Assembly: GCA_964387845.1 (NCBI GenBank)
Contig: CAYLXA010000002.1
Location: 128,001 to 192,000 of the forward strand
Origin: an uncultured bacterium
GTDB lineage: Bacteria > Omnitrophota > Omnitrophia > Omnitrophales > Abzuiibacteriaceae
DNA: 64,000 nt
Direction of reading: 5' to 3'
Under the pieces are notes generated by a model. It was given only the letters and a program-made list of their open reading frames with translations, searched no databases and had not been told where the DNA came from. A program made the position numbers and the translations under genes. Below, one piece after another: positions 33,338-58,971 of the stretch. Each line of letters begins with the position of its first letter. The stretch's first letter is position 1.

Positions 33338-33366
33338 TTCTTGACATTTTTTAATTTAGTCATATA
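33338..33366 (+). promoter_or_regulatory. Near-consensus sigma-70 promoter (TTGACA-N16-TATAAT) for the PC4-like gene
   Basis: cttgacattttttaatttagtcatataattc, read directly. Confidence 0.55.
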
Positions 33367-33449
33367 ATTCTTGTGTTTTTAGTAATACCTTCCACGCACA
33401 CCTCACGCGCAGTGCAAAAATCAAAACCAACCATCAAGAGGAGTGTGTC

Positions 33450-33692
33450 ATGGACAAACAAGTGGTTTATCAGTTTGACCGCAATCAAAATGAAAAAGTG
33501 GTAGTCTCCATAGGTGCTTATAAAGAGAAGACTTACGTCGATTTTAGGGTCTTCTTTGAGGACCCAGGCTCGGGTGATTTAAAGCCCACCAAAAAAGGGA
33601 TTACGATTGCAGAAAACCTGCTTCCGCATTTGAAAAGAGCGATTGGGGCCTGTGAGAAAACAAAGGTCCCGGCTGCGTCATTTAAGAGCTGA
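33450..33692 (+). CDS. PC4-like (transcriptional coactivator p15 / YdbC family) ssDNA-binding protein
   Basis: KTYVDFRVFFEDPGSGDLKPTKKGITIAENL matches the PC4-domain hallmark (YVDIREYY...PTKKGISL), 80 aa. GGAG-containing SD upstream. Confidence 0.6.
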   Translation: MDKQVVYQFDRNQNEKVVVSIGAYKEKTYVDFRVFFEDPGSGDLKPTKKGITIAENLLPHLKRAIGACEKTKVPAASFKS

Positions 33693-33723
33693 TTTTTAGT
33701 TAAAACGCACCCTATCTTCAACT

Positions 33724-33751
33724 TTACAAACATGTGGTAAGTGTGTATAAT
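33724..33751 (+). promoter_or_regulatory. Sigma-70-like promoter of recA (TTTACAA...TATAAT)
   Basis: TTACAA-N16-TATAAT read directly. The -10 element overlaps the ORF-track GTG start at 33741, which argues against that start. Confidence 0.5.
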
Positions 33752-33800: not shown

Positions 33801-34904
33801 ATGAAAAAGAAACCATCATCCAAGAAAGAACATTCAGAAGAACCTCAAGGGAAAGCTGCTCAAGAAAAGAAGAAAGCATTAGAGTTAACACTTTTACATA
33901 TCGAAAAGCAGTTTGGAAAAGGTTCCATCATGAAACTGGGTGATGAACACCAGCGCCGCATGCAGGTTGATGTCATTCCAACCGGCGCCTTTACACTGGA
34001 TCTTGCAACCGGCATCGGCGGCGTTCCGCGCGGCCGCGTCATTGAGATCTTCGGGCCGGAGTCCAGCGGAAAAACCACGCTGACGCTAAGCATTGTCGCC
34101 CGCGCTCAAAAGATGGGCGGAACTGCCGCGTTTATTGATGCAGAGCACGCATTAGACCCTGCTTATGCAACCAAGCTTGGCGTGAACCTGAATGACCTTC
34201 TGATTTCTCAGCCGGATTCCGGCGAGCAGGCACTTCAGATCGTTGAAATGCTGATTCGCTCAAACGCGATTGATGTTTTGGTGGTCGATTCTGTCGCGGC
34301 GCTCGTACCGAAGTCTGAAATTGAAGGCGAAATGGGCGCTTCCTCGATGGGCGTTCAAGCGCGCCTGATGTCGCAGGCATTGCGGAAACTCACGGCAATT
34401 ATCAGCAAATCAAAAACATCGCTCATCTTCATCAATCAAATCCGCGATAAAATCGGTGTCATGTTCGGCAATCCCGAAACAACACCGGGCGGAAAAGCGC
34501 TGAAGTTCTTCTCATCGATGCGGCTCGATATCCGCCGGATTGGTTCAATTAAGAAAGGTGAAGAAGTGGTCGGTAACCGCGTGCGCGTTAAAGTCGTCAA
34601 AAATAAGTGCGCGGCACCTTTCAAACTCGCCGAATTCGACATCATGTTCGATGAAGGCATCTCGCGCTCAGCTTCGGTGATTGATATCGCGATCGAAAAC
34701 GAGATTCTCGAGAAATCGGGCAGCTGGATTGCCTACAATAACGAAAAAATCGGACAAGGGCGCGATGCTGTCAGGCTTTTCCTTCGCGAAAACCCGAATC
34801 TCCTGGAAGAAATTGAAGGCAAAGTCAGGGAAAAACTCACAGCGGTTGCCGCAGAGCATCCGCAGAAGCCTGGCTCCCAGGATGAGGAGAAAGACAGCGA
34901 ATAA
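33801..34904 (+). CDS. recA: Recombinase RecA
   Basis: [23 protein letters not shown], Walker A (GPESSGKTT), the L1/L2 loop region and IFINQIR. ATG 33801 (MKKKP) sits downstream of the promoter with a GGGGAAG RBS. The ORF-track start 33741 is a GTG inside the -10 box. Confidence 0.9.
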
Positions 34905-34938
34905 TCTCGCCTGAACTTCTAAATCTCTTGAGGGTGAA

Positions 34939-34969
34939 ACGCGGCGGATTGATTCCGCCGTGTTTTTTT
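34939..34969 (+). terminator. Strong rho-independent terminator between recA and recX
   Basis: acgcggcgga-ttga-tccgccgtgt 10-bp GC-rich stem then a TTTTTTT run. Confidence 0.75.
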
Positions 34970-34976
34970 CTAATCC

Positions 34977-35486
34977 ATGACAGACAATCAACAGAATTTG
35001 ACGGACGTTAAGGCGCTCGAAGACGGGCAGGAGAAAAACGGCTACATTTACGCAATCCGCCTGTTGTCGGTAACAAAACGCAGTGAGCGGGAATTAAAAA
35101 AACGCCTCAAAGAAAAAGGGTACGGCGAACAAGCGATTGAGAAAATCGCACAGGTGCTTAAAAATCAGAAATATTTAAACGATCTGTCGCTCGCCAAGCA
35201 GCAGGTTGAATATTCGGTTTTCGGAAATCCGAAGGGCCGGAAGCGCATTCGGTTTGAATTAAAACACAAAGGCGTATCGGACAGCGTGATCGACTCGGCG
35301 CTTGAAAGTTACGATCAAGCCAAAGAAACCGAAATTGCGGCGGAAATTGCCGAGCGTAAGTTCGAGCAAATGACAGATCCTGATGCGGCGAAAAAATTGA
35401 AGCGCATTTTTGATTATTTATCCAGGCGCGGTTTTGATTATGAAATTTGCAGGTCGGTGGTTTCGGAACTAAAAAAGAAAACATGA
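34977..35486 (+). CDS. recX: Recombination regulator RecX
   Basis: 169 aa helical-repeat protein with a RecX-like N-terminus (YAIRLLSVTKRSERELKKRLKEKGY). Conserved position after recA. Confidence 0.8.
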   Translation: MTDNQQNLTDVKALEDGQEKNGYIYAIRLLSVTKRSERELKKRLKEKGYGEQAIEKIAQVLKNQKYLNDLSLAKQQVEYSVFGNPKGRKRIRFELKHKGVSDSVIDSALESYDQAKETEIAAEIAERKFEQMTDPDAAKKLKRIFDYLSRRGFDYEICRSVVSELKKKT

Positions 35487-38086
35487 AAACGAGTGAAATC
35501 AGAAAACGGTTTTTGGATTTTTTCGCCAAGCGCGGTCATACGGTCGTCAAAAGCGATTCCCTGATCCCGGCAGGCGATCCGACCCTGCTGTTCACGGGCG
35601 CAGGGATGAACCAATTTAAAGACTATTTTCTGAGCGTCAAAAAAGATTTGAAGCGTGCAACGTCGTCTCAAAAGTGCCTCCGAGCAGGCGATTTGGACTC
35701 TGTCGGCCAAACGCCGTATCACCACACATTTTTTGAAATGCTGGGCAACTTCTCATTCGGCGATTACTTCAAACGCGAAGCGATTGAATGGGCTTGGGAA
35801 CTTCTGACAAAAGAATTTAAACTGCCGCCTGAACGTTTGCGCATCAGCGTCCATAAAAAGGATGATGAAGCGTTTAAAATCTGGCGCGAGGTCGTGAAAG
35901 TGCCGGAAAATTGGATCGATAAACGGGACGACGACTCTAATTTTTGGCCGGCCAACGCACCTGCAGATGGTCCAAACGGGCCCTGCGGACCGTGTTCTGA
36001 GATTTATTATGATCAAGGCGAAAATTATCCAAGTGCCGGCAAAAATGCAAAATGGGCGGATGATTCATCCGGCCGGTACGCTGAAATTTGGAACCTGGTG
36101 TTTACACAATTTGACCGTCAAGACGGCGGAGGCTTGAAACCGCTTGCGGCGAAAAATATTGATACCGGCGCAGGGCTTGAGCGCCTGGCGTGTATGATTC
36201 AAGGCAAGAAAGTAAATTACGAAATCGACCTCTTTGAACCCATGCTCAAAACTATGCAGCAAATTTTTAAAGGCAAAATTGGTGCCGATAGCATCAAAAC
36301 ACTTTACACGTTTGTGGATCACGGCCGCGCTGCCGTATTTTCCATTACCGACGGCATTTTCCCGTCGAATGAAGGCCGTGGATATGTTATCCGAAAATTG
36401 ATTCGCCGAAGCGTCTGGCGCGGAAGCGCTGCCGGTGTTCATCAGCCCTTTTTGCACAAAATCGTTCCGGCCGTCATTGAAGCGATGGGCGATCAATATC
36501 CGGAAATCGCACAATCGCAAAAAAATGTGACGCAAGTGATCGAGCAAGAAGAAAAAAGATTTTTGGAAACCATTGAAAGCGGCGGTGAGTCACTTACAAA
36601 AACAATTTCGACAGTCAAAAATGCAAAACTTAAACAAATTCCGGGCGAGGAAGTATTTAAATTGTATGACACGTACGGATTTCCAGACGAATTAACTAAA
36701 CTGATTGCGACGAAAGAAGGTCTTTCCATCGACCAAAAAGGTTTCGATAAATTGATGAACGAACAGCGAGAACGCGCAAAATCAAAAAGCAAAATTGCGG
36801 ACTCCATTTTCGTGGTCGACAGCAGCAAGCAGGAAATCGCAGCCCTTCCAGCAACTCAATTCGTGGGTTACGAAAAACTCGAATCGGATGCGAAAGTGCT
36901 TTGGTCGAAAGTTGCCGACACTGGGGAGGTTCTTGCGCTTGACCGGACGCCGTTTTATCCTGAAGGCGGCGGCCAGGTTGGCGATAAAGGCAAAATCGCT
37001 GGTGACGGATTTGAGTTTGACGTCATAAATACTCAAAAAAAGGAAAAAATCATTCTGCATATCGGAAAAACCGTACGCGGAAAAATCAAGATCGGACAAA
37101 CTGTAAAAGCAAGCGTGAACGCAGAGCTGCGCCACGCGACAAAACGCAATCACACGGCAACGCATTTGCTGCAGGCGGCCTTGAAACGTGTTTTGGGCGA
37201 CCATGTCCGGCAACTAGGTTCACTGGTTAACCCTGAGAAACTCCGGTTCGATTTTTCGCATCCGAAAGCCTTAACGCAAGATGAAATCAAGAAAGTCGAA
37301 GTCGAGGTGAATCAAGTCATTCTTCAAAATTCAGTGGTCCAGCACAAAACCGAATCTTATCAAGACGCAACGAAAGGCGGCGCATTGGCGTTCTTCGGTG
37401 AAAAGTACGAAGATGAAGTGCGCGTCATCGACGTACCGGGCTTCAGCAAAGAACTGTGCGGCGGAACGCATTGCGCACGCACGGGTGATATTGGCCTTTT
37501 TGTCATTACGAACGAAAGCTCGGTGGCAAGCGGCACGCGCCGGATTGAAGCCAAAACGGGGTTGGGTGCTTTGAATTACTTGCAATCACTTCAGAAAACA
37601 ATCCTGGACGCTGCTCAGGCGATCAAATCATCGCCCGATCGCTTGGTGGAAGACGTGCAAAAAATACAGCAGAATTTGAAAAAAGCAGGCCAGCAAAAGT
37701 CCGTATCCGTCTCGCTACCAAGCGCAAGCGATTTGATTCAAAAAAGCAAGCCGGCGGGCAGTGTTAGTTTAATTGCACAAAACATACAAAACGCGCAATT
37801 GGACGATCTGCGCAATATCGGAGACGCATTGCGCCAGTCGGCCAAGCAAAGCGTTATTGCTTTATTTTCATCGCAAGACGACAAAGTGTCTTTGATTGTG
37901 GGCCTCTCGAAAGACTTGGCGCAATCCAAGTTGGATGCATCACAAATCGCAAAAAAAATTGCCGAAACACTCGACGGCTCTGCGGGCGGGCGCAAAGACC
38001 TGGCGCAGGGCGGCGGCAAAAATCCGGCGGCCATTCAAAAAGCAATTGATGAATTGCCGGCTATTTTGAAAGAAGCGGGAAAATAG
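35483..38086 (+). CDS. alaS: Alanine--tRNA ligase
   Basis: MKTSEIRKRFLDFFAKRGH N-terminus, class II AlaRS core, editing-domain HxxxH...CGGTH, C-terminal DHHA1-like region. The ATG overlaps the recX stop (ATGA); the ORF-track 35447 is an upstream extension. Confidence 0.9.
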   Translation: MKTSEIRKRFLDFFAKRGHTVVKSDSLIPAGDPTLLFTGAGMNQFKDYFLSVKKDLKRATSSQKCLRAGDLDSVGQTPYHHTFFEMLGNFSFGDYFKREAIEWAWELLTKEFKLPPERLRISVHKKDDEAFKIWREVVKVPENWIDKRDDDSNFWPANAPADGPNGPCGPCSEIYYDQGENYPSAGKNAKWADDSSGRYAEIWNLVFTQFDRQDGGGLKPLAAKNIDTGAGLERLACMIQGKKVNYEIDLFEPMLKTMQQIFKGKIGADSIKTLYTFVDHGRAAVFSITDGIFPSNEGRGYVIRKLIRRSVWRGSAAGVHQPFLHKIVPAVIEAMGDQYPEIAQSQKNVTQVIEQEEKRFLETIESGGESLTKTISTVKNAKLKQIPGEEVFKLYDTYGFPDELTKLIATKEGLSIDQKGFDKLMNEQRERAKSKSKIADSIFVVDSSKQEIAALPATQFVGYEKLESDAKVLWSKVADTGEVLALDRTPFYPEGGGQVGDKGKIAGDGFEFDVINTQKKEKIILHIGKTVRGKIKIGQTVKASVNAELRHATKRNHTATHLLQAALKRVLGDHVRQLGSLVNPEKLRFDFSHPKALTQDEIKKVEVEVNQVILQNSVVQHKTESYQDATKGGALAFFGEKYEDEVRVIDVPGFSKELCGGTHCARTGDIGLFVITNESSVASGTRRIEAKTGLGALNYLQSLQKTILDAAQAIKSSPDRLVEDVQKIQQNLKKAGQQKSVSVSLPSASDLIQKSKPAGSVSLIAQNIQNAQLDDLRNIGDALRQSAKQSVIALFSSQDDKVSLIVGLSKDLAQSKLDASQIAKKIAETLDGSAGGRKDLAQGGGKNPAAIQKAIDELPAILKEAGK

Positions 38087-38089
38087 TCC

Positions 38090-39370
38090 ATGCAGCTCCT
38101 CCATTGGGAAAAAAACGCATTTCGAAAACTGGAAAAGGGAATCGACGGCACGATCGATAAGGATCTGTACCGCAAAGTTGAGCGCATCCTGTCCGAAGTC
38201 CGCTCAAAAGGCGATGCGGCCATCCGCCGTTTCACAAAAGAGTTTGATCGTCTTGAGCTTCCACTGAAGCGGATTCAGGTCACAGAAGGCGATATTAACC
38301 GTGCGTTTGAAAAAATTCAGGTTCAATTCGTACCGATTTTGAAACAAATCACCGACAACGTGACAGCTTACTATGAATCTGAGCTGAAAAAATCCTTTGA
38401 AATCAAATCTGAAAGCGGCGCTTATTTGGCAAAACGGTATCGTCCGATTGAACGGGTCGGCATCTATATTCCGGGCGGCACAGCACCGCTCGTTTCAACC
38501 GTTTACATGACAGTCATTCCAGCCAAAGTCGCGGGCGTTAAAGAAATCGTGATTTGCACGCCGCCAAACCGAGAAACCGGTGAAGTTAACCCGAATATTC
38601 TGGCGGTTGCTAATTTGCTGGGCGTGAAAGAAATTTACCGAGTCGGCGGCGCGCAGGCAATTGCCGCGATGGCATTCGGCACGCGGACAATCAAAAAAGT
38701 AGATAAAATCGTCGGTCCCGGAAATCCTTACGTCACGGAAGCCAAGCGGCAAGTGTTCGGCTATGTTGATATTGATATGATCGCAGGGCCCAGTGAAGTG
38801 GCCATCATTGCAGACGGCGAAGCAAACGAAGACTATGTGACTTGCGATTTACTCGCACAGTCTGAGCATTTTGGTGGAATCTCGTATCTCGTCACCAATT
38901 CCAAAAAGCTAGCAGAATCGATCCGTAAGCGCGTCGACAGCGGCTTTGTATTTTTGGTTAAAAATATGAACGAAGCCTGTGAAGCCATTAACGAAATCGC
39001 GCCGGAACATTTACAAATCATGACCGCAGATGCGGAATCCCTGGCGAAAAAAATAGAGCATGCGGGTGCAATATTTTTAGGCGCCTACTCGCCGGCTGTG
39101 TTGGGCGACTATATCGCAGGCCCGAGCCACGTACTGCCGACCGGTGGAACCGCGCGGTTTTTCTCACCGCTCAGCGCGTCCAGCTTTGTCAAAAGCACGC
39201 AGATTATTTCGTATACGCGGGAAGCGCTCGAAAAAGTCCGCCAGCACGTACACCAGCTCACGGAATTGGAAGGTTTGATTCTTCATAAAATATCGCTCGA
39301 AGCCCGGTTTGTGAATGGCTCTCCGGCCAAATCAGAAACCAGGGAATCGTCACAATCAGGAGGCAAATAA
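38090..39370 (+). CDS. hisD: Histidinol dehydrogenase
   Basis: HisD motifs (IYIPGGTAPLVSTVYMT, region with SEHFGG). Confidence 0.9.
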   Translation: MQLLHWEKNAFRKLEKGIDGTIDKDLYRKVERILSEVRSKGDAAIRRFTKEFDRLELPLKRIQVTEGDINRAFEKIQVQFVPILKQITDNVTAYYESELKKSFEIKSESGAYLAKRYRPIERVGIYIPGGTAPLVSTVYMTVIPAKVAGVKEIVICTPPNRETGEVNPNILAVANLLGVKEIYRVGGAQAIAAMAFGTRTIKKVDKIVGPGNPYVTEAKRQVFGYVDIDMIAGPSEVAIIADGEANEDYVTCDLLAQSEHFGGISYLVTNSKKLAESIRKRVDSGFVFLVKNMNEACEAINEIAPEHLQIMTADAESLAKKIEHAGAIFLGAYSPAVLGDYIAGPSHVLPTGGTARFFSPLSASSFVKSTQIISYTREALEKVRQHVHQLTELEGLILHKISLEARFVNGSPAKSETRESSQSGGK

Positions 39371-39371
39371 A

Positions 39372-39977
39372 TTGGCTGCACAAAAAAGAATCGGAAAAGT
39401 TGGCCGAGAAACCAAAGAAACATCGATCCAGATTGAACTCAATTTGGACGGCTCCGGATCGTCATCCATTGCGACCGGAATTCCGTTTTTAGATCACATG
39501 CTCACGAGCCTGACAAAACACGGTCTATTTGACTTGAAAGTCAAAGCGAAAGGTGATTTGGAAATCGACATTCACCACACGAACGAAGACGTCGGAATCG
39601 TGCTGGGCCAGGCACTGTCGAAAGCGCTCGGAAACAAAGCCGGTATCCGCCGGTTTGGGTTTTTCAGCATTCCGATGGATGAGGCACTGGTCCGAGTCAG
39701 CATTGATATTTCAGGGCGGCCGTCGTTTCACTTGATTAAATCAAAAACTGCAAAATTTCACCGCTCAACCAAATATTCATTTCACGACGCGTGTGAATTT
39801 ATGCGTGCCTTCACGCTCAATTCCGGCATCAACATGATCGCGGAAGTCATGCAGGGCGAAGACTCTCACCACATTACGGAAGCCATGTTTAAGGCTTTGG
39901 CTAAATCACTCGATACTGCCACACAAATCGATCCGCGAGTGAAGGGTGTTCCGTCTACAAAGGGAAAACTTGCCTAA
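39372..39977 (+). CDS. hisB: Imidazoleglycerol-phosphate dehydratase
   Basis: GRETKETSIQIELNLDGSG N-terminus and the D-x-HH/H-x-x-E metal motifs (IDIHHTNEDVGI, GEDSHHITEA). Likely TTG start at 39372 after an AGGAGG SD; the ORF-track 39315 extension overlaps hisD. Confidence 0.8.
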   Translation: MAAQKRIGKVGRETKETSIQIELNLDGSGSSSIATGIPFLDHMLTSLTKHGLFDLKVKAKGDLEIDIHHTNEDVGIVLGQALSKALGNKAGIRRFGFFSIPMDEALVRVSIDISGRPSFHLIKSKTAKFHRSTKYSFHDACEFMRAFTLNSGINMIAEVMQGEDSHHITEAMFKALAKSLDTATQIDPRVKGVPSTKGKLA

Positions 39978-40588
39978 TGATTTGCGTTGTTGATTATGGA
40001 ATGGGAAATCTGCGCAGTGTCAGCAAAGCATTGGAAATGCTGGGTGGGCGCGTCCGTGTTTCGGATCAACCAAAAACGCTTGAACAAGCGAGCAAGTTGA
40101 TTTTGCCCGGGGTTGGCGAATTTGGCGCTGCAATGCGGGAATTAAGAAAAAGGCGCCTTGCCGGCCCGATTTTACGCCACATAGGCCGCCAGAAGCCTTT
40201 TCTCGGGATTTGCTTGGGCTTACAGCTTTTGTTTGAAAAAAGCGAAGAGAGTCCCGGTGTCAAAGGCCTTTCCGTGATCCCCGGAAGCGTCATTCGTCTG
40301 GGTAAGAAGACGAAACAAAAATTGAAAATTCCGCAAATGGGCTGGAACCGGGTTGATTTCACGAAACGGTCCGAATTGGTGAAGAAAATCCCGGATAATA
40401 GTTATTTTTATTTCGTACATTCATTTATCGGATCGCCAAAAAGCAAGGCGGTTGTGGCCGGCGAAACCAGTTACGGATCAAAATTTATTTCCATGCTCCA
40501 GAAAGACTCTGTTTTTGCCGTACAATTTCATCCGGAAAAAAGCCAGGCAGCCGGGCTTCAGTTGTTAAAAAATTTTATCCAATATTAA
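39977..40588 (+). CDS. hisH: Imidazole glycerol phosphate synthase, glutamine amidotransferase subunit
   Basis: Class I GATase with the GICLGLQ active-site Cys and an HPE catalytic-triad region. Confidence 0.9.
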   Translation: MICVVDYGMGNLRSVSKALEMLGGRVRVSDQPKTLEQASKLILPGVGEFGAAMRELRKRRLAGPILRHIGRQKPFLGICLGLQLLFEKSEESPGVKGLSVIPGSVIRLGKKTKQKLKIPQMGWNRVDFTKRSELVKKIPDNSYFYFVHSFIGSPKSKAVVAGETSYGSKFISMLQKDSVFAVQFHPEKSQAAGLQLLKNFIQY

Positions 40589-40600
40589 AAAGGTAATCGC

Positions 40601-41332
40601 ATGATCTTAATTCCTGCAATTGATATCCGCGGCGGACGCGTCGTGCGCTTAACACGCGGTGATTTCGCCAAAGAGAAAGTGTATTCCGATTCACCGGAAG
40701 CCGTTGCGCTCAAATGGCAGCGTGAGGGAGCTAAAATGATTCACGTCGTCGACCTGGACGGTGCTGCGACCGGCCGGCGGAAAAATTTGGGCTCGCTAAA
40801 AAATATCTGCCAAGCCGTTCGGGTTCCAATTCAATTCGGAGGCGGGCTCAGATCCGTTCAAGCGATCGAGGAAGTATTTTCTGTCGGAGTTTCGCGCGCC
40901 GTTATCGGAACCAAAGTGTTCGATTTAAAAATGCTCAAACAGCTTGTGAAAAAATTCAGCGACCGGATTGTGGTGAGCTTGGACGTCAGAGGCGATGCGC
41001 TTCAAATCGGAGGCTGGAAATCACAGGTCAAGCTGATGAAAATTGATTCGCTGTGCAAGGAGCTTGAAAAATTGGGTGTTCAAAATGCGATCTATACCGA
41101 TGTCGTCCGCGACGGAACTTTGTCGGGGCCTAATTTTGAAAAGACAGAACATTTGCTTGAAACCACCGGTTTGAAAATCGTGGTTGCGGGCGGAATTTCG
41201 GATTTGAAGGACTTAAAAAAATTAAAAGCCCTGAAACATCCCAACCTGTTCGGCGTTATTATTGGAAAGGCTTTATACGAAAAACGGTTTGAACTTCCGG
41301 AGGCGTTGGCGCTGGTCAACGGAAAATCATGA
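40601..41332 (+). CDS. hisA: 1-(5-phosphoribosyl)-5-[(5-phosphoribosylamino)methylideneamino]imidazole-4-carboxamide isomerase
   Basis: MILIPAIDIRGGRVVRL N-terminus and (beta/alpha)8 HisA signatures. Confidence 0.9.
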   Translation: MILIPAIDIRGGRVVRLTRGDFAKEKVYSDSPEAVALKWQREGAKMIHVVDLDGAATGRRKNLGSLKNICQAVRVPIQFGGGLRSVQAIEEVFSVGVSRAVIGTKVFDLKMLKQLVKKFSDRIVVSLDVRGDALQIGGWKSQVKLMKIDSLCKELEKLGVQNAIYTDVVRDGTLSGPNFEKTEHLLETTGLKIVVAGGISDLKDLKKLKALKHPNLFGVIIGKALYEKRFELPEALALVNGKS

Positions 41333-41721
41333 ACTATTGGCAAACTTTGATATCTGAAAAAAGCTGGGCGTGGTCGGTGGTCGCGTTGGTGTGGCTGATC
41401 GTGATGTTAATCGTGCGCCACATGCTCCTGCGTTATATTTTTGTGGAATTAAAACGCGTTAACAAAGAAATCCGGTCGCAGGTCCAAAGAATTTATTTGC
41501 CCAGGTCTATTCTGGGATGGCTGCTCTTTTTGCTTGGTATTGCGCTAGGTACCGTGATTTGTTTAGACCCGGGCTTTATGGGCGGTCATTTGGCGCTTTT
41601 CCAGCTTCAGGTGTTGTGCATTGCCATTTTAGCGGCTTCGATTTTCGCGCATACCCACGCCTATACGGACGCTATTTTAAAAGTCGTGGTCGAGCATTTT
41701 GGGGTGGAGAAGCCTTCCTGA
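41329..41721 (+). CDS. Hypothetical 3-TM membrane protein embedded between hisA and hisF
   Basis: ATGA overlap with the hisA stop and TGATG overlap with the hisF start. Three hydrophobic helices; no recognisable domain. Confidence 0.5.
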
Positions 41722-42479
41722 TGCTCGCAAAGCGCATTATTCCGTGCCTGGACGTACGTGACGGGCGAGTAGTGAAAGGCGTTCGCTTTATTGATTTGAT
41801 TGACGCCGGCGATCCGGTCGCATGCGCGAAAGCCTATGATAAAGCCAAGGCTGACGAGCTGGTTTTTTTGGACATCACCGCCTCGCACGAGCGGCGCTCG
41901 ACCTTGATTCGAATTGTCGAAAAAGTTGCTGAATCAATCTACATTCCGTTTACGGTAGGTGGCGGCATCCGGAACGTGGAAGATATCCGAGCATTGCTGA
42001 AAGCCGGCTGCGATAAGGTATCGCTCAACACAAAAGCAATCGAAAATCCGAATTTGGTACGCCAAGCCAGTAAAAGGTTTGGAAGCCAGTGTATCGTGGT
42101 CGCCATTGATGCCAAGCAAAGCGCGCGCAATCGCTGGACGGTTTACACACACGGCGGGCGTAATCCAACCCGGTGGGATGCTGTCAAATGGGCGAAGCAT
42201 GTTGAAAAGCTCGGCGCAGGCGAAATTTTGCTTACCAGCATGGATTGTGATGGCACAAAAAATGGTTATGATTTGGCATTAACCCGGGCGGTTTCATCCG
42301 CCGTTCGAATTCCGGTGATTGCCTCCGGCGGCGCGGGAAAGTTGCAACATCTGCATGACGCATTCACAAAAGGAAAAGCGGATGCGGTTTTAGCGGCTTC
42401 GATTTTCCATTTTGGAAAATTTACGATACCGGAAGCCAAACAATATTTGAAAAAGAAAAAAGTAGAAGTCAGGCTTTAA
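41721..42479 (+). CDS. hisF: Imidazole glycerol phosphate synthase cyclase subunit
   Basis: [21 protein letters not shown]-terminus and conserved HisF barrel motifs. The ORF-track start at 41517 is an artifactual upstream extension. Confidence 0.9.
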
Positions 42480-42502
42480 TTGGATACTGAGAAAGGATTT
42501 CA

Positions 42503-42874
42503 ATGATTAAGTTCAAGTTTAATGAAGACGGTTTAATGCCGGCCATCGTGCAGGAAAAAAAGACGGGGCAAGTCTTGATGCTGGCTTACGTCAACAAAAA
42601 GTCCCTCCAAGTTATGATGAAGAAGAAGTATACGTATTTTTATTCACGCTCCCGCAAAAAATTTTGGATGAAAGGTGAAACTTCAGGGCATGTACAAAAA
42701 GTGCTTTCAATTAAAACCGATTGCGACCGCGATACGATTCTCATTGAAGTAGAGCAGGTCGGTGCGGCGTGCCACTTGGGCTATCACTCCTGCTTCGTTC
42801 ACTTGTTAGACGCCAAAGGCAACATCAAACGCGTCACCGAAAAGCGCGAATTTGACCCAAAGTCGATTTATTAA
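42503..42874 (+). CDS. hisI: Phosphoribosyl-AMP cyclohydrolase (no HisE domain)
   Basis: [16 protein letters not shown]...[11 protein letters not shown]...[10 protein letters not shown] signature. Confidence 0.85.
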
Positions 42875-44358
42875 TGAACATCCAGCCGGACTACGCTCAA
42901 TTTACCAAGCTCGCCGCACAGGGAAATCTCATCCCTGTGTTTGCCGAAGAGTTGGCCGATCTTGAAACGCCGGTATCTTTGTTTCTTAAAATTGCCGGAA
43001 AAGATCCCCACGCTTTTCTGCTTGAATCCGCCGAATATGAGGAAAGTATCGGGCGCTACTCCTTGGTTGGCGCTCAGCCCGGCTCCGTGATTGAATTAAA
43101 GAAAAACCTCTTCACGGTCAAGAGCGCCGGCAGGTTAAAACGGATCAAAATCACATCCAAAGAAGACGCGTTAAGCGCATTTAACAATATTCTCAAATCT
43201 TACCGCTTTGTTCGAAATCCGAAACTGCCGTCGTTTGTCGGCGGCTTTGTTGGATTTCTGGGCTATGAATTCGTGACGTTTTGTGATGATATTCGCCTAC
43301 GGAGCAAACCCGGACTCGGCACGCCGGATGCCTTACTCCTCATGACGCAGAATTTGGCAGTGTATGATCACTTCGAACACAAGATTAAGTTAATCCATCT
43401 CGCGGATACCCGCACAAAATCGCCCAAGCAGGCATATACGGACGCAGAATACGCAATCAAAACCATGCAGCATAAAATCAACACGCAGCGAATACCCGCA
43501 GCACTGGAAGCAACTCGAAAAAAATCGAAATCTGTTGCAATTAAATCCAATGTTACCAAAAAGACTTTCACCGCGAGTGTCGGAAAGATCAAAGCTTACA
43601 TACGAGCCGGTGATTGTATTCAAACTGTTCTATCTCAGCGTTTCGAGCTCCCTCGAATCAAAAATGATTTTGCGGTCTACCGGGCGCTTAGGTCGCTTAA
43701 TCCATCGCCGTACATGTTTTATTTTCGGAGCGGTTCGCTGCGGCTAGTGGGCTCATCCCCGGAAATGCTGGTCAAAAAGCAGGGGAGCACGGTCGAAACG
43801 CGTCCGATTGCCGGCACGCGCCCGCGCGGCCACGACGAAACATCCGACAAGCGGCTGGAAGAGAATTTAAAAGCCTCTAAAAAGGAAATGGCGGAACATC
43901 TCATGCTGGTTGACCTTGGAAGGAATGATTTGGGCCGCGTCTGCGATTACAAAAGTGTCAAAGTCCGGCACTTTGCCCAAGTCGAGCGTTTTTCTCACGT
44001 CATGCATTTGGTCAGCCATGTCGAAGGCAGGGCGCTTAAAAATAAAAGCCCGATGGAAATCATCAGCGCCTGTTATCCGGCCGGGACCGTTTCAGGAGCT
44101 CCGAAAATTCGTGCCATGCAGATTATTGATGAACTGGAACCCGAAAAGCGCGGGCCTTATGCGGGTGCCGTCGGTTACATCGGTTTTGACGGCGATTTTG
44201 ATCTTTGCATCACGATTCGTACAATTCTCATCGATGGCAAAAAAGCGTTTGTGCAGGCAGGTGCGGGAATTGTCAACGATTCAAATCCGGAAAAAGAATA
44301 CCAAGAAACAATCAACAAAGCCCGGGCGCTCATGCGTGCTGTCGAAATGGCAGGCTAA
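42874..44358 (+). CDS. trpE: Anthranilate synthase component I
   Basis: Chorismate-binding-enzyme C-terminal motifs ([30 protein letters not shown]). The start overlaps the hisI stop (TAATG). Confidence 0.9.
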
Positions 44359-44360
44359 CC

Positions 44361-44930
44361 ATGTTGCTCATGATCGATAACTACGATTCGTTCACGTATA
44401 ACCTCGTTCAATATTTTGGTGAATTGGGTGTCAAACTCAAAGTATTCCGGAACGACAAAATCTCAATTGCTCAAATCAAGCGCCTAGGCCCTACCAAGAT
44501 CGTGATTTCGCCGGGACCCTGCTCACCGAAAGAAGCGGGGATTTCCAATGAAGTCATCGCCTCTTTCAGTGGAAAGCTGCCGATTCTGGGTGTCTGTCTT
44601 GGGCATCAGTGCATCGGCCACGTTTTTGGCGGAAATGTGATCCGCGCCGCACGGATTATGCACGGCAAAACATCCGAAATTCATCATTCAAAAAAGGGTA
44701 TCTTCAAAGGAATGCCCGAGCCCTTTCAGGCCACGCGCTACCATTCGCTTCTAGTCGAGCGAAAATCGTTTCCGGAAGCATTGGACATCACGGCGTGGAC
44801 AAAAGAGAAAGAAGTGATGGGTCTCCAGCACAAAAAGCATGCAACCTTCGGCGTTCAATTTCATCCGGAGTCGATTCTAACCGAGCAGGGAAAACGGCTT
44901 CTCGCGAATTTCCTTAAAGTAAAAGGTTGA
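44361..44930 (+). CDS. trpG: Anthranilate synthase component II / aminodeoxychorismate synthase glutamine amidotransferase
   Basis: [19 protein letters not shown]-terminus, GVCLGHQ active-site Cys, HPES. The ORF-track start at 44205 is an upstream extension overlapping trpE. Confidence 0.9.
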
Positions 44931-44997
44931 TTGACCGCTCGATATCTGCTGTAAAAAAAATCCCCCATTTTCTCGAATTGTGTTAAAATTACACACT

Positions 44998-46035
44998 ATG
45001 GCATTGGACAAAATAATTGATAAGCTATTGCTATATAACGACTTAGAGAATTCAAAGGCCCGCTTTGCCTTTCAGAATCTTCTAAACGGCAAATTGGACC
45101 AAAAGACAGCCAAAGCTCTCTTGGTTTTGCTCCGCCGAAAGGGTGAGACCGCCACCGAACTTTTTTCACTCATTCAGGCCGCTCGAATGAAAAACGGCAA
45201 ACGTGTCACGGTCCGAAGCAAGCAAAAAAATCTTTGCGATGCTTGTGGAACCGGCGGTGATGGGCAAAAAACATTCAATGTGTCGACGATTTCAAGCCTG
45301 GTTGCGGCCGGCGCAGGCGCCAAGATCGCTAAACACGGCAACCGTTCGATTACATCCAGCTGTGGGAGCTCGGATTTAATGGAAGCGCTTGGTGTCAAGC
45401 TCGACGCAACGCCAAAAGCCATCGCGCGTTCAATTGATCGATCCGGCATCGGTTATTTTCACGCCCCGCTTCACAGCAAAGCCTTTGCCAATGTTCAGGG
45501 AATTCGAAAGGAATTGGCGGCGCAAAAAATTAAAACCATTTTTAATATGGCCGGGCCCTTGCTGAATCCATTGCATGTAAAACGTCAAGTTGTTGGTGTT
45601 TATCATCCGCGAATGATTCCGATTGTTCTGAATACACTCAAAAAACTTGGCACAGTTCATGCAATCGTACTTTCCGGAAAAAATGGAACCGATGAACTCA
45701 CAACCTATCAACCGACTTTTACGGGTGAATTAAAAAAGGGCATCGTGCGGTATTTTAAAATCAATCCGAGCGCTTACGGTTTACGCACTGCAAACATCGC
45801 GCTCATGCGCGGCGGAAGTGCGGCAAAAAACCTCAAAATCGCCCTTGATCTACTAACCGGCCGTGACAAAAGCGCCCGCCGTGATGTGATTCTCGCAAAT
45901 GCGGGCCTCATTTTATATGTAAGTCAAAATGCCAAAAATTTACATGATGGAATCCGGAGGGCTGATCGGGCTCTCAAGTCCGGCAGGGCTCTGCGCGTCA
46001 TCGCTGAAATGAAAAAGGCAACCCATGCTGCTTGA
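44998..46035 (+). CDS. trpD: Anthranilate phosphoribosyltransferase
   Basis: DACGTGGDGQKTFNVST and KHGNRSITSSCGSSD motifs. ATG 44998; the ORF-track 44980 is a GTG extension. Confidence 0.9.
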   Translation: MALDKIIDKLLLYNDLENSKARFAFQNLLNGKLDQKTAKALLVLLRRKGETATELFSLIQAARMKNGKRVTVRSKQKNLCDACGTGGDGQKTFNVSTISSLVAAGAGAKIAKHGNRSITSSCGSSDLMEALGVKLDATPKAIARSIDRSGIGYFHAPLHSKAFANVQGIRKELAAQKIKTIFNMAGPLLNPLHVKRQVVGVYHPRMIPIVLNTLKKLGTVHAIVLSGKNGTDELTTYQPTFTGELKKGIVRYFKINPSAYGLRTANIALMRGGSAAKNLKIALDLLTGRDKSARRDVILANAGLILYVSQNAKNLHDGIRRADRALKSGRALRVIAEMKKATHAA

Positions 46036-46822
46036 TAAAATTGTTGCCAATAAAAAGCGCGAAATTGAAATTTTGAAGCGCCGCCGGCCCGTTTCTGAAT
46101 TGAAAAGACTTGGTGCCGAACGGCCGCATTCGGTGATTTCATTTCGAAAACAACTCCAATCGAGCGGAAAGCGAGCTAAACTTATCTGCGAGATGAAAAA
46201 AGCATCACCTTCGGAAGGCTTGATGCGGCGTGTGTATTTGCCCAGAAAAATTGCGGCGATTTACGAACGTGCCGGCGGCAGCGCCATTTCGGTTCTGACC
46301 GATCAAAAATATTTCAAGGGCTCTATTCACACGATTCGTCATATAAAAGCAGTGACAAAGCTTCCGGTTTTACGGAAGGATTTTCTGGTGGATGATTACC
46401 AGATTTATGAATCAGCAGCGTTTGGCGCTGATGCGATTTTGTTAATTGTCGCAATTTTATCGGATCAAGAATTGGCCCGGCTCCTTAAGCTTGCAAAAAA
46501 ACTCCGATTAGACGCACTGGTTGAAGCACACAACGAATCGGAAGTAAAACGCGCGGTTCGCGCCGGAGCAAACTTAATCGGAATTAATAACCGGAATTTG
46601 GATACACTCAGCATCAACTCAAAACATGCGGAAACGTTGATGAAGTTGATTCCCAAAAATGTGACCATTGTGGTCGAGAGCGGAATTCACACGCGGAAAG
46701 ATATCGAACGCTACCAAAAACTGGGCGCTCACGCGTTCCTCGTCGGAACGGCGTTTATGAAAGCGCCGGATATTTCAAAAAAAATGAGAGAGTTGATCGG
46801 AAACCATGGAACAGCCGTCTAA
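46025..46822 (+). CDS. trpC: Indole-3-glycerol phosphate synthase
   Basis: IAEMKKASPSEG, GINNRNL and ESGI motifs. Confidence 0.9.
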   Translation: MLLDKIVANKKREIEILKRRRPVSELKRLGAERPHSVISFRKQLQSSGKRAKLICEMKKASPSEGLMRRVYLPRKIAAIYERAGGSAISVLTDQKYFKGSIHTIRHIKAVTKLPVLRKDFLVDDYQIYESAAFGADAILLIVAILSDQELARLLKLAKKLRLDALVEAHNESEVKRAVRAGANLIGINNRNLDTLSINSKHAETLMKLIPKNVTIVVESGIHTRKDIERYQKLGAHAFLVGTAFMKAPDISKKMRELIGNHGTAV

Positions 46823-47438
46823 AATAAAAATTTGCGGGAATACAAACCTCAAAGATGCGGAGCTGGCCAAACAGCTGGGCGCCGATTTTCTCGGGTTTAT
46901 TTTCGCCAAAAGTCCGCGCAAAATCGAACCGCGCGATGCCGAGCCTATCATCCGCGCACTCGGTAATTTTGAAAATTTTGTTGGTGTTTTCGCCAATCAA
47001 CCCAAGCAGGAAGTCGAACAAATCGCATCCCAACTTCAGCTGAAATGGCTCCAGTTCCACGGTGAAGAAACAAGCCGCTATTGCGATTACTTCACGGAAA
47101 AGAAATACAAAGTGATTAAATCATTTAGGATCAAAGATAGGCTCAGCCTAAAACGGCTTGACGAATACAACGTCGACGCCTTTTTGTTTGATACCTATTC
47201 TGCCAAATCATTGGGCGGGACCGGTGAAACCTTTGACTGGACCATTATTGACGACAAGCCGCATGTCCGTGACAGGTTATTTTTGGCCGGCGGGCTTTCG
47301 GTGGATAACGTTCAAGAAGCAATCCGGAAAACGCAGCCCTACGCCATTGATGTCGCAAGCGGCGTTGAAAAAGAGCCGGGCAAAAAAGATCCTGCTTTGC
47401 TTCGAAAATTCATGGAACTTGCAAGGGGAGTGAAATAA
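46806..47438 (+). CDS. trpF: N-(5'-phosphoribosyl)anthranilate isomerase
   Basis: KICGNTNLKDA...GADFLGFIF N-terminus, LAGGLSVDNV C-terminal motif. Confidence 0.9.
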   Translation: MEQPSKIKICGNTNLKDAELAKQLGADFLGFIFAKSPRKIEPRDAEPIIRALGNFENFVGVFANQPKQEVEQIASQLQLKWLQFHGEETSRYCDYFTEKKYKVIKSFRIKDRLSLKRLDEYNVDAFLFDTYSAKSLGGTGETFDWTIIDDKPHVRDRLFLAGGLSVDNVQEAIRKTQPYAIDVASGVEKEPGKKDPALLRKFMELARGVK

Positions 47439-47441
47439 CCC

Positions 47442-48632
47442 ATGGCAAACCGTCATTTCTTGACCAAAGCGATTGAAAAAATCGGAAAAGTCGACAAGCA
47501 AAATTTAGAACAGCTTGTCATCAGTCTCCGCCATGAGGCGCATTTTCTGCATGAATTGCTGAGCCGTATCCAGGAAGGCGTCATGGTGGTCAGCTCAAAA
47601 CTTGAAGTCAGATTTTTAAACCGAAAAGCCCAGCTCATTGTCGGCAGCTCCAGCCTTCTCAGGCATCACGAAACCGTGCGGGACATTGTCGAGGACGAAG
47701 GGCTCCGAGCGTTGATTGAAAAAACGGTTGAATCCGGCCAAGAAATTTATGACACCCCGGTCGATTTGTACATTCCGCGGCACGCCCAGCTCAATGTGTC
47801 CATTTTAAAATTTGAGCCAAGCCCCGGTGAAGCGCAAACCGAATGGAAAAAATTCTATATCGTCTTATTAACCCGGCAATCGGCTGCCGAAGAGCGGGAG
47901 CTTGAAAGAGCGCGCCACGAAAAAATGAATTCAGTCATCAGTCTGGCGGACGGCATTGCGCATGAAATCGGAAACCCGCTCAATTCAATCAATATTCATT
48001 TGCAACTGCTTTTAAGCGACATCGAGAAACTTCCGAAAAAAGAGCAGGCCGCGATTCGAAAAACCGCGCAAATCGTAGCGGATGAAACCAAGCGGCTGGA
48101 TTCAATTATCCGTAATTTCTTAAAAGCAAGCCGCCGAAAACCGATTGAATTCCGATCAACTCAGATCAACGACATTCTGAATCACGTTCTCGAGCTTTTA
48201 AAACCCGAAATCGTCAACAATCGGATTCAAGTAAAAACTTCTTTTGATTCTGCGCTGCCCAAATTTTTAATTGATGAAGACCGTTTGAGCCAAGTGTATG
48301 TGAATTTGATGCGCAATGCCATTCAGGCCATGCCGAAGGGCGGAAGGCTTGCAGTCTCGACGCAGATGCATAAGCGGCTTTGTATCACACAAATCGCAGA
48401 CACCGGAGTCGGCATTTCGAAAAAAGACATCCCAAAAATTTTTGACGCGTATTACACCACCAAAGAAGAGGGGAGCGGTTTGGGCTTGATGATTGCTTAC
48501 CAAATCATCGGGGAGCACGGTGGAAAAATCGAAATTGAAAGCAAATTGGGCAAAGGAACGGTCGTCACGGTCCTTCTACCGATCCGGACTGAAAAGCTGC
48601 AGCTCACCGGCCCAAAAAGGAGCAGGGAATAA
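47442..48632 (+). CDS. Cytoplasmic PAS-type sensor histidine kinase (NtrB-like)
   Basis: No TM helix. H-box ADGIAHEIGNPLNSINIHLQLL, N-box LMRNAIQA, and G1/G2 boxes (DTGVGI, GSGLGL). Confidence 0.8.
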   Translation: MANRHFLTKAIEKIGKVDKQNLEQLVISLRHEAHFLHELLSRIQEGVMVVSSKLEVRFLNRKAQLIVGSSSLLRHHETVRDIVEDEGLRALIEKTVESGQEIYDTPVDLYIPRHAQLNVSILKFEPSPGEAQTEWKKFYIVLLTRQSAAEERELERARHEKMNSVISLADGIAHEIGNPLNSINIHLQLLLSDIEKLPKKEQAAIRKTAQIVADETKRLDSIIRNFLKASRRKPIEFRSTQINDILNHVLELLKPEIVNNRIQVKTSFDSALPKFLIDEDRLSQVYVNLMRNAIQAMPKGGRLAVSTQMHKRLCITQIADTGVGISKKDIPKIFDAYYTTKEEGSGLGLMIAYQIIGEHGGKIEIESKLGKGTVVTVLLPIRTEKLQLTGPKRSRE

Positions 48633-50021
48633 ATGGAACATTTAAACAGCGGTATTTTGATTGTCGACGATGAAAAGAATACGCGTGAAGGGCTTCAGCG
48701 ATTTTTGGAGCAAAAGGGCTATGAAGCCCATGTTGCAGAAAATGGCGAAGAAGCGCTCAAGCTGGCCAAAGAACTCAATCCGGACATCACGCTGCTGGAT
48801 CTCCGCATGCCCGGAATGGACGGCATGCACTTGCTTCACCGGCTCAAAGCCGGACATCCAAAAATGGTTGTACTCATGCTGACTGCGTACGGGACCGTTG
48901 AAACGGCGGTTCAAGCCATGAAGGCCGGTGCGTATTACTACCTAACAAAACCGGTCAATTTGGATGAGCTGGAACTCATTCTCCGAAAAGCGATTCGCGA
49001 GCAATCGCTCGAGCATGAAAATCAGAATTTACGCCAAGATTTAATCCGCGAAAAGTTTGAAGAAGGAAAAATCGTAGGCGAATCGCCTGTGATTAAAAAA
49101 TTAATCGACATGGCCAAACAAATCGCAGGTTCCGCCGCTACGGTTTTGATTCAAGGCGAAAGCGGAACGGGAAAAGAACTGTTTGCGCATATGATCCATG
49201 ATCACAGCCCCCGAAAAGGCAAGCCATTCATCACGGTTCATTGCGCGGCGCTCACCGAAACTTTGCTTGCCAGCGAACTCTTCGGACACGAACGCGGTGC
49301 ATTTACCGGTGCAACGGAGCGAAAAATCGGCCGGTTTGAACGCGCTGACAGCGGGACGCTTTTCCTGGATGAGATCGGCGAAATTTCGGAAGAAACGCAG
49401 GTGAAGCTTCTCAGGTTTCTTCAAGAAGGCGAATTTGAACGCGTCGGAAGCTCTAAAACCATGAAAGTTGATGTGCGCCTAATTTGCGCAACCAATAAAG
49501 ATTTGAAAAGCGAAGTCGCCGCCGGGCGATTTCGTGAAGATTTATTTTACCGGATCAATGTTATTCCGCTGACTATTCCACCGCTTCGAGAACGCGGCCA
49601 GGATATTCCGCTTTTAGCGAATTATTACGTCCGTTATTTCAGCCGGCAAAATCAGAAAAAAATCTCAGGCATAGCACCGGAAGCATTGCAAAAACTGCAA
49701 AGCTACTCCTGGCCCGGCAACATCCGTGAACTCCGCAATATCATTGAGCGGGCAGTGGTGTTGGCCAAATCGGATAAAATCGAACTTCAAAATATTCCCG
49801 ATGACTTGGAGGGTTCTTCTGTGATTAAACGGCCTTCGGAATCGCTGCAAAAAGCGGAAACCGATAACGGTGTCCGGCTCACAGCGCTTGAAAAATTGGC
49901 CATTGAACGCGCACTGAAAAATGTTAACGGCAACAAATCTTTAGCCGCCAAAGAACTTGGCATTTCACGCCGAACGCTTTATCGCAAGCTTGAAGAATAC
50001 AACATTGGTGATTCAAAATGA
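48633..50021 (+). CDS. Sigma-54-dependent response regulator (NtrC family: REC + AAA + Fis HTH)
   Basis: REC domain with the phospho-acceptor D in [11 protein letters not shown]; Walker [15 protein letters not shown] motif and the ESELFGHE region; C-terminal HTH ([12 protein letters not shown]). Confidence 0.9.
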
Positions 50022-50040
50022 CACACTCTCGTTGTGTCAT
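50018..50040 (+). promoter_or_regulatory. Perfect 8-bp inverted repeat (atgacaca-N7-tgtgtcat) spanning the regulator's stop codon
   Basis: Read directly. No U-tract follows, so this may be an operator or an RNA hairpin rather than an intrinsic terminator. Confidence 0.3.
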
Positions 50041-50215
50041 CCCGACAAAATCTGCCAAAAATATTCTCCAATCAAAATCTGACTATACATAAGTCATTTA
50101 TTAACAATAACTTACATAAATTAATATTTACAATCGATTTGGCATGTAATTTGTTCTAATAGAGATAAGATTTGGGCTGTCAAAATAAGCAAAATTGAAA
50201 AGGAGCGGTACTGAA

Positions 50216-52997: not shown

Positions 52998-53022
52998 TTC
53001 AGAATTCAACAAGGAGACAGCA

Positions 53023-54012: not shown

Positions 54013-54026
54013 GCGGGATTTGACGC

Positions 54027-58896: not shown

Positions 58897-58971
58897 GCGC
58901 GTTTTCTTTACCTGTTGTTTTTTTACATAAGATATATTATCGGACGTTATTAAATATAAAGAAAACACCCT

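Follow-up and report, generated by a model that had tools for sequence, protein, structure and literature searches.

A conserved his-trp gene string in Omnitrophota and the two-component system at its end, a probable activator of the adjacent dnaK gene

The window analyzed here is a stretch of 64,000 nucleotides (nt) from an uncultured bacterium of the phylum Omnitrophota (family Abzuiibacteriaceae; assembly GCA_964387845.1, contig CAYLXA010000002.1, positions 128,001 to 192,000, forward strand). It carries a string of closely packed genes that runs from recX and alaS through hisD, hisB, hisH, hisA, a gene for an unnamed protein (x), hisF, hisI, trpE, trpG, trpD, trpC, and trpF to a histidine kinase and a sigma-54-dependent response regulator, with dnaK behind (Table 1). 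This his-trp-regulator string is real and is conserved across Omnitrophota in both its gene order and its overlaps; we favor, with moderate confidence, the reading that it is a housekeeping string whose terminal two-component system activates dnaK and not amino acid synthesis.

Gene content and packing of the string

Gene identities were assigned from the open reading frame (ORF) listing and from NCBIfam and Pfam scans, with curated equivalog cut-offs as the threshold. The NCBIfam scores of alaS, hisD, hisB, hisH, hisA, hisF, hisI, trpE, trpD, trpC, and trpF lie above these cut-offs, trpG passed the cut-off of the trpG/papA subfamily rather than that of an equivalog, and all gene names given in an earlier note on this DNA were borne out. 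The recX assignment is accompanied by that of its orthologue in L082, a closer relative with independent gene calls, which has three RecX Pfam domains. The hisB start is a TTG at 39372 with AGGAGG in front; the alternative ATG at 39315 would give a 56-nt overlap with hisD, and the L082 hisB encodes 202 amino acids (aa) and starts 1 nt past hisD. The hisA gene is monofunctional and is not priA, since the bifunctional hisA-trpF model TIGR01919 gives 170 against a cut-off of 306. Five pathway genes (hisG, hisC, hisE, trpB, and trpA) had been noted as absent from the string and supposed to lie elsewhere; the NCBIfam/Pfam scans and the ORF survey found none of them encoded in the 64 kb. Their presence elsewhere is supported by a preprint on 176 complete Omnitrophota genomes, which reports a complete histidine pathway, including hisG and hisC, and trpA/trpB in 174 to 176 of the 176 (bioRxiv 10.64898/2026.06.07.730766); gene order lay outside its scope.

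Table 1. Features of the string and its edges. Junctions are with the next gene of the string and were read directly from the DNA; negative values are overlaps.
Feature	Position	Strand	Assignment or description	Junction
Intrinsic terminator after recA	34936–34966	+	13-bp stem, 7 GC pairs, T-run; 10 nt before recX start	
recX	34977–35486	+	RecX NCBIfam models E 4e-29, under curated cut-offs; first gene of the coupled string	ATGA overlap
alaS	35483–38086	+	Alanine--tRNA ligase; TIGR00344 905 bits, cut-off 457	3 nt
hisD	38090–39370	+	Histidinol dehydrogenase; TIGR00069 477 bits	1 nt
hisB	39372–39977	+	Monofunctional imidazoleglycerol-phosphate dehydratase; NF002111 236 bits, cut-off 231	TAATG overlap
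hisH	39977–40588	+	TIGR01855 234 bits	12 nt
hisA	40601–41332	+	TIGR00007 254.6 bits, cut-off 229	ATGA overlap
x	41329–41721	+	130-aa protein of an unnamed family; no Pfam/NCBIfam match; three hydrophobic stretches	TGATG overlap
hisF	41721–42479	+	TIGR00735 382 bits	23 nt
hisI	42503–42874	+	NF000768 157.5 bits, cut-off 126; cyclohydrolase only, without HisE domain	TAATG, stop and start share one base
trpE	42874–44358	+	TIGR00564 542 bits, cut-off 518	2 nt
trpG	44361–44930	+	TIGR00566 266 bits	67 nt (49 nt if GTG at 44980 is the start)
TGTTAAAAT	44981–44989	+	Extended -10-like element in the trpG-trpD spacer (44931–44997), 8 nt before the trpD ATG	
trpD	44998–46035	+	TIGR01245 335 bits	-11 nt
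trpC	46025–46822	+	NF001377 305 bits, cut-off 260	-17 nt
trpF	46806–47438	+	NF002298 219.5 bits, cut-off 215; separate monofunctional gene	3 nt
Histidine kinase	47442–48632	+	Pfam HisKA and HATPase_c; PAS-like N-terminal region	0 nt
Response regulator	48633–50021	+	Sigma-54 dependent; Pfam Response_reg, Sigma54_activat, AAA_lid_14, HTH_8	194 nt (to dnaK)
Dyad ATGACACA-N7-TGTGTCAT	50018–50040	+	Arms 50018–50025 and 50033–50040, 8/8 complementary, 7-nt loop	
Sigma-54-type promoter TGGCATGTAATTTGTT (predicted)	50140–50155	+	-24 GG 50141–50142, -12 TTGT 50151–50154; about 60 nt 5' of dnaK	
dnaK	50216–52144	+	NF001413 1044 bits; AAGGAG Shine-Dalgarno	

The tight spacing from alaS to the regulator that the earlier note had described, with a sole large gap before trpD, was confirmed on the DNA, and the overlaps and short spacers on one strand are dense enough for the translational coupling that it had proposed. 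Its view of the extent of the string stood at the downstream end, at the regulator, and failed at the upstream end, where the true start lies one gene before alaS, at recX. From recX to the regulator, 14 of the 15 junctions measure at most 25 nt and 7 of these are overlaps, all on one strand. In the rest of the window 25 of 38 junctions (66%) are also this short, and from 257 to 58896 the window is a single series of 54 genes on the same strand, with unrelated functions, including def, fmt, gapA, cdaA, glgB, malQ, pgk, tpiA, secG, recG, coaD, plsX, fabHDGF, smc, pgsA, der, and plsY. No other part of the window has as many consecutive tight junctions as the string (10), and the 14 of 15 in the string against the 66% background gives p of about 0.02 by a simple binomial; the string is tighter than its surroundings, though only moderately.

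Conservation across Omnitrophota

Relatives were gathered by a TrpE scan with one genome per species, which yielded about 58 loci from metagenome-assembled genomes of Candidatus Omnitrophota at 47 to 59% TrpE identity, with no closer genome among the species scanned; the window proteins were compared with these loci by tblastn, and the spacings given for relatives are ORF based. Each Omnitrophota locus of sufficient length, from about 55 species-level genomes (L001 to L055, L059, L063, L064, L082, and L083, with the alaS-to-regulator span in about 24), showed the collinear order recA-recX-alaS-hisD-hisB-hisH-hisA-(about 420 nt)-hisF-(0 to 4.7 kb)-hisI-trpE-trpG-trpD-trpC-trpF-kinase-regulator, continuing as (about 200 nt)-dnaK-...-MoxR-DUF58. 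TrpE matches from outside the phylum (Thermodesulfobacteriota, Paracoccaceae, and others) had no his linkage. The his-trp junction, for which a comparison with relatives had been suggested, and the attachment of the two-component system were thus kept in every Omnitrophota relative examined and are not peculiar to this genome.

The junctions themselves are conserved along with the order. In 43 of 55 relatives hisI and trpE are at most 4 nt apart, as are trpF and the kinase in 38 of 39; the kinase and regulator are separated by at most 25 nt in 34 of 38, and the spacer between regulator and dnaK has a median of 207 nt. L082, which was reached via protein x (75% identical), repeats the arrangement and the overlaps of the window all the way from pgsA-der-plsY-PC4-recA to dnaK. 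Synteny also reaches past the his and trp genes, to der-plsY-PC4-recA upstream and dnaK-MoxR-DUF58 downstream.

Some loci depart from the common pattern. The hisF-hisI junction is an insertion hot spot in one subclade, in which the hisI-trpE overlap is retained; the insertions (in L022, L023, L025 to L027, L030, L033 to L041, L043, L051, and L059) encode a VanY-like D-Ala-D-Ala carboxypeptidase lipoprotein, ABC-F ATPases, a TPR lipoprotein, and an RlpA-like protein. These inserts were considered as carriers of the missing his genes and rejected, as the proteins are unrelated. The distant locus L048 gave no tblastn match for hisI in the 12 nt that part hisF from trpE, nor for trpF in the stretch from trpC to the kinase; it retains the flanking order, the regulator, and the sigma-54 site of dnaK. 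Two loci labeled "uncultured Planctomycetia" by their submitters (L054 and L063) have the same hisI-trpE-trpG-trpD-trpC-trpF order, and L063 has recX-alaS and the other his genes in addition; either they are mislabeled Omnitrophota, or the block reaches beyond the phylum.

The gene between hisA and hisF, x, is a conserved orphan that overlaps both neighbors. The same slot in about 35 relatives holds an ORF of 104 to 222 aa, mostly of about 132 to 144 aa, the longest being upstream start extensions; x is missing from the most basal relatives (L047, L048, L053, and L063). A profile search returned 104 homologues, all unnamed or labeled as Omnitrophota hypothetical proteins and none with a Pfam domain, and x itself matched nothing in Pfam or NCBIfam. 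Residues R30, Y56, G63, and W64 are invariant in both alignments, and F67 and H108 only in the alignment of 14 sequences. From its hydrophobic stretches and a confident, all-helical AlphaFold2 model (predicted local distance difference test score, 83), x reads as a small three-helix membrane protein; a Foldseek comparison of the model with the PDB gave nothing under an E value of 1. We considered x as a stand-in for the missing HisE and rejected this, as x is hydrophobic and a predicted membrane protein. What is conserved here is an orphan, predicted to lie in the membrane, that is lodged among the histidine genes of Omnitrophota.

The two-component system and the region before dnaK

The regulator is a true enhancer-binding protein of the sigma-54 type, a response regulator with a receiver (REC) domain (PF00072), a sigma-54 AAA+ domain (PF00158; E = 8e-73) whose family's GAFTGA motif occurs in the translation, and a Fis-type helix-turn-helix (HTH) domain (PF02954); its nearest solved structure is Aquifex NtrC4 (4l4u). 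Its scores fell below the equivalog cut-offs for NtrC (443 versus 558.6), AtoC (520.8 versus 714), and ZraR (433.6 versus 760), and those of the kinase fell below the cut-offs for AtoS (226.8 versus 646) and NR(II) (115 versus 240). The description of the pair as NtrB/NtrC-type therefore holds at the level of the family, and the regulator is not NtrC itself. The kinase had likewise been called a PAS kinase: it aligns over its full length to the PAS kinases AtoS (E = 5e-67, under the cut-off) and ThkA (3a0r), and residues 7 to 160 fall within full-length matches to AtoS, PnpS, and ThkA 3a0r, so that the N-terminal part may be described as PAS-like; Pfam finds no PAS domain there at E ≤ 0.01. 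By eye, no transmembrane segment is apparent in the kinase.

The target suggested by the region downstream is dnaK. The motif TGGCAYG-N4-TTG precedes dnaK in all 31 loci with the spacer (the window, all 28 GTDB relatives in which the regulator and dnaK are both present, L082, and L083), at 45 to 90 nt in most of them. In 1.83 Mb of Omnitrophota loci searched on both strands, 28 of 40 regex matches were the dnaK site, as were three more at the ends of contigs. With a weight matrix made from the relatives only, the window being excluded, the best-scoring position in the window was 50138 to 50157 (21.9 bits); the next hit (15.8 bits) is intragenic. The consensus is TTTGGCAYGATAATTGAT, in which the -24 element TGGCAYG is canonical and invariant. 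The earlier note had proposed a search for sigma-54 promoters before the his and trp genes; in the window, neither the regex nor the weight matrix placed a sigma-54-type site ahead of any his or trp gene, or of alaS or recX, and the one strong site is that of dnaK.

Upstream of this predicted promoter, the perfect 8-bp inverted repeat that the note had placed at the regulator stop is exact, with the TGA (50019 to 50021) inside the left arm, and it is unique in the window. Relatives have dyads of the type CACA-N5-10-TGTRTCA, usually flanked by more TGCC and TGNCNCA half-sites. In 19 of 29 loci, the distance from a related dyad to the -24 element downstream is 112 to 119 nt. The dyads of relatives begin 3 to 60 nt past the regulator stop, so the overlap of dyad and stop codon in the window is incidental. 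In L029 and L030, where an additional 1 to 2 kb lies between the regulator and dnaK, the dyad remains with the promoter. The half-sites keep their sequence type in relatives while often losing mutual complementarity, which fits a protein-binding site and not an RNA stem. An IHF-like YAANNNNTTGATW was seen by eye between dyad and promoter in many relatives. Dyad, putative bend site, -24/-12 elements, and an adjacent GAFTGA/HTH activator would together make up a textbook sigma-54 module. CIRCE, the TTAGCACTC-N9-GAGTGCTAA element of HrcA control, was not found in the window with up to 3 mismatches. On the 3' side of dnaK (52167 to 58896), a Bat-like cluster with seven tight junctions encodes a BatD-like protein, a MoxR AAA_3 protein, a DUF58 protein, a product of unknown type, two BatA/vWA proteins, and a TPR protein; in relatives, too, dnaK is followed by MoxR and DUF58, and the MoxR/vWA genes may belong to the same sigma-54-controlled unit.

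We therefore regard the following mechanism as the probable one. The kinase would sense a signal, presumably intracellular, and the regulator would bind the dyad and activate the sigma-54 promoter, from which dnaK and, probably, the MoxR/vWA genes that follow would be expressed. With the kinase coupled to trpF, the sensor and regulator would be kept at a basal housekeeping level just upstream of their target, and because no terminator was called in the spacer before dnaK, read-through from the string could supply basal dnaK expression.

Several observations weigh against this reading. The pattern TGGCAYR-N4-TTG has one match in the window (50140 to 50153) where 0.69 is expected, which is chance level, so that the case is carried wholly by positional conservation. 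The -12 element departs from the canonical TTGC in 26 of 29 sites, which have TTGA or TTGT, and matches it in 3, and in about one-third of relatives the dyad is divergent and not captured by our patterns. The link between regulator and promoter is drawn from their conserved adjacency, another enhancer-binding protein could use the site, and rpoN is not among the genes of the 64-kb window. Cotranscription of the string is no more than probable, and a sigma-70 promoter scan of the window gave 19 sites against 20.1 expected, again at chance level. Finally, a pure dnaK role does not explain the tight trpF-kinase coupling.

That coupling also speaks for the suggestion of the earlier note, that the kinase and regulator sense a cytoplasmic (nitrogen or amino acid) signal and regulate the attached his-trp super-operon: no other junction of the block is conserved so tightly. 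The kinase and regulator share the orientation of the trp genes, with which they are almost certainly coexpressed, and the family takes in NtrB/NtrC. We nevertheless consider this improbable, as sigma-54-type sites before the his and trp genes are lacking, the dyad occurs nowhere else in the window, the string leaves no intergenic space for an enhancer and promoter, the NtrC score falls short, and the full set of enhancer and promoter sits before dnaK. A variant would make the coupling itself the signal path, tying the amount of sensor and regulator to the ribosomes that complete the his-trp string and relaying amino acid starvation or translation stress to dnaK and the MoxR/vWA genes, with x as a further partner at the HisA/HisF step. 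If true, it would be a hard-wired link from translation of a biosynthetic operon to the chaperone response; we give it a slim chance.

Another alternative is that the string is no functional unit, its packing reflecting genome-wide compaction and its order the phylogenetic inertia of a larger block of core genes. The 54 co-directional genes of unrelated function, the share of short junctions outside the string, the synteny beyond it on both sides, and the insertion of unrelated genes at the hisF-hisI junction of many relatives all agree with this. Yet the order persists at 47 to 59% TrpE identity, the stop/start overlaps at hisI-trpE and trpF-kinase are kept in about 80 to 97% of genomes, insertions are confined to a few junctions, and both the longest tight run and the binomial comparison single out the string, and we judge compaction alone to be unlikely. 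The dyad might also be an RNA element, a terminator or 3' stabilizer that ends the string, given its perfect stem, a z score of -2.45 against shuffles, and its position exactly at the end of the last gene. Its fold is only -8.6 kcal/mol and AT-rich, it is followed by CCCGACAAAA without a U-tract, and the terminator scan did not call it, whereas the recA terminator in the same window reaches -25 kcal/mol with U7; the behavior of the half-sites in relatives, which keep their distance to the promoter, points the same way. Protein binding is thus a likelier role for the dyad than the ending of a transcript, and an RNA role seems very improbable. Activation of dnaK by the terminal two-component system remains the reading that we prefer.

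Expression of the string, related systems, and significance

The upstream boundary of the string is marked by the terminator after recA (about 33801 to 34904, just 5' of recX), whose RNA fold has a z score of -4.9 and of which every base but one loop position is kept in L082. The order recA-recX-alaS is the classic one of E. coli and occurs in many bacteria, and in E. coli recX is reached by read-through of a terminator. The promoter of the string was not located, either by the sigma-70 scan or by comparison of the 3' part of recX with L082, which singled out none. Strong sigma-70 sites are limited to two: a perfect TTGACA-16-TATAAT consensus (12/12) at 33341 to 33368, 5' of an 80-aa PC4/Whirly-like ORF (33450 to 33692) that is called at the same place in L082, and the promoter of recA itself (11/12) at 33723 to 33751. 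The terminator scan found 42 candidates against 30.4 expected, near chance; those inside the string are short intragenic stems, with no convincing intergenic one. A tRNA scan of the window found none. At the other end of the co-directional run the coding strand flips near 58900, between convergent genes at 57808 to 58896 (+) and 58972 to 60630 (-), and the cumulative GC skew peaks at 56 to 58 kb and then declines; the two together would be in keeping with a terminus of replication or a comparable boundary of strand bias.

Within the string, alaS, x, and trpE have no Shine-Dalgarno and start in overlap with the preceding stop, which fits translation by termination-reinitiation. A scan of the 64 kb at the Rfam gathering thresholds gave 0 matches (T-box, leader, or riboswitch), and with 3 nt ahead of hisD and -1 nt ahead of trpE there is no room for a leader; therefore, attenuation, T-box, and riboswitch control are excluded at the locus. 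We infer that one or a few long polycistronic mRNAs read through, or start past, the recA terminator, and His/Trp supply would then be constitutive, with control exerted on the enzymes and not through attenuation. The trpG-trpD spacer, which has no significant RNA structure, may hold an internal promoter. The trpD ATG has no Shine-Dalgarno, and an mRNA that starts from a promoter at TGTTAAAAT could reach trpD with little or no leader. Between the window and L082 the 3' part of the spacer hardly varies, and the pattern TGnTAAAAT was not found in 15 spacers of more distant relatives; we rejected it as a general internal promoter, and a lineage-specific one is possible.

The note had called the his-trp fusion unusual, which is so relative to model organisms, although there is precedent in Actinomycetota, where priA lies in the context of his and trp genes (PMC13055916) and where M. 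tuberculosis has his genes at Rv1602 and Rv1603 and trpE, trpC, trpB, and trpA in Rv1609-1613 (PMC7609029). The likeness extends to his genes followed on the same strand by trp genes from trpE and to an extra non-pathway gene between hisA and hisF. The his-trp neighborhood with the priA context spans Rv1599-Rv1613 in M. tuberculosis, with hisI as Rv1606 and impA included, and SCO2036-2054 in S. coelicolor. The Omnitrophota string differs in its separate monofunctional hisA and trpF, and thus in having no PriA, in including trpG, trpD, and trpF but not hisC, trpB, or trpA, in the direct hisI/trpE overlap, and in its fusion to recX-alaS and to a two-component system. The aromatic supraoperon of B. 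subtilis (aroFBH-trpEDCFBA-hisC-tyrA-aroE) is a long polycistronic unit with trp genes, one his gene, and overlapping stop and start codons, under TRAP and T-box RNA control. It is a looser analogue, with only hisC there, a his segment of seven genes here, and no RNA element detectable here. The upstream part resembles E. coli recA-recX-alaS in order, strand, and the terminator between recA and recX. There, alaS has its own autoregulated promoter and is followed by csrA, whereas biosynthetic genes follow alaS here.

The module before dnaK resembles ZraS/ZraR with zraP and other systems of the NtrC family that act on a sigma-54 promoter next to their own genes: a HisKA kinase and a REC-AAA+(GAFTGA)-HTH_8 regulator, with a dyad about 100 nt before the -24/-12 elements of a neighboring chaperone-type gene. 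Here the kinase has no apparent membrane segment and a PAS-like N terminus in place of a periplasmic sensor, the target would be the gene of a cytoplasmic Hsp70, and the -12 element is mostly TTGA/TTGT. Predicted sigma-54 promoters before GroEL, DnaK, DnaJ, and GrpE genes are reported to be enriched in Planctomycetota and Bacteroidota (PMC12316311); Omnitrophota lay outside the coverage of that work, which tied no specific adjacent two-component system or enhancer to the promoters. The sites before dnaK, dnaJ, grpE, and groESL in Planctomycetota, a related phylum of the Planctomycetes-Verrucomicrobia-Chlamydiae group, are similar in kind, and our literature search found no published link between Omnitrophota and sigma-54. 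What is new is thus a variant of two known things, his-trp clusters of the Actinomycetota type and predicted sigma-54 chaperone promoters.

Our results suggest that His/Trp synthesis in Omnitrophota is hard-wired into a housekeeping string, without the RNA control of model bacteria. They propose for the phylum a regulatory module of sensor kinase, sigma-54 activator, enhancer, promoter, and dnaK, which would add a third lineage to the two, Planctomycetota and Bacteroidota, in which sigma-54 control of chaperones is predicted, and would name the probable activator. They also illustrate that the operon to which a regulator is attached is not necessarily the one that it controls. As Omnitrophota are almost all uncultured, conserved gene order of this kind is one of the few handles on their physiology.

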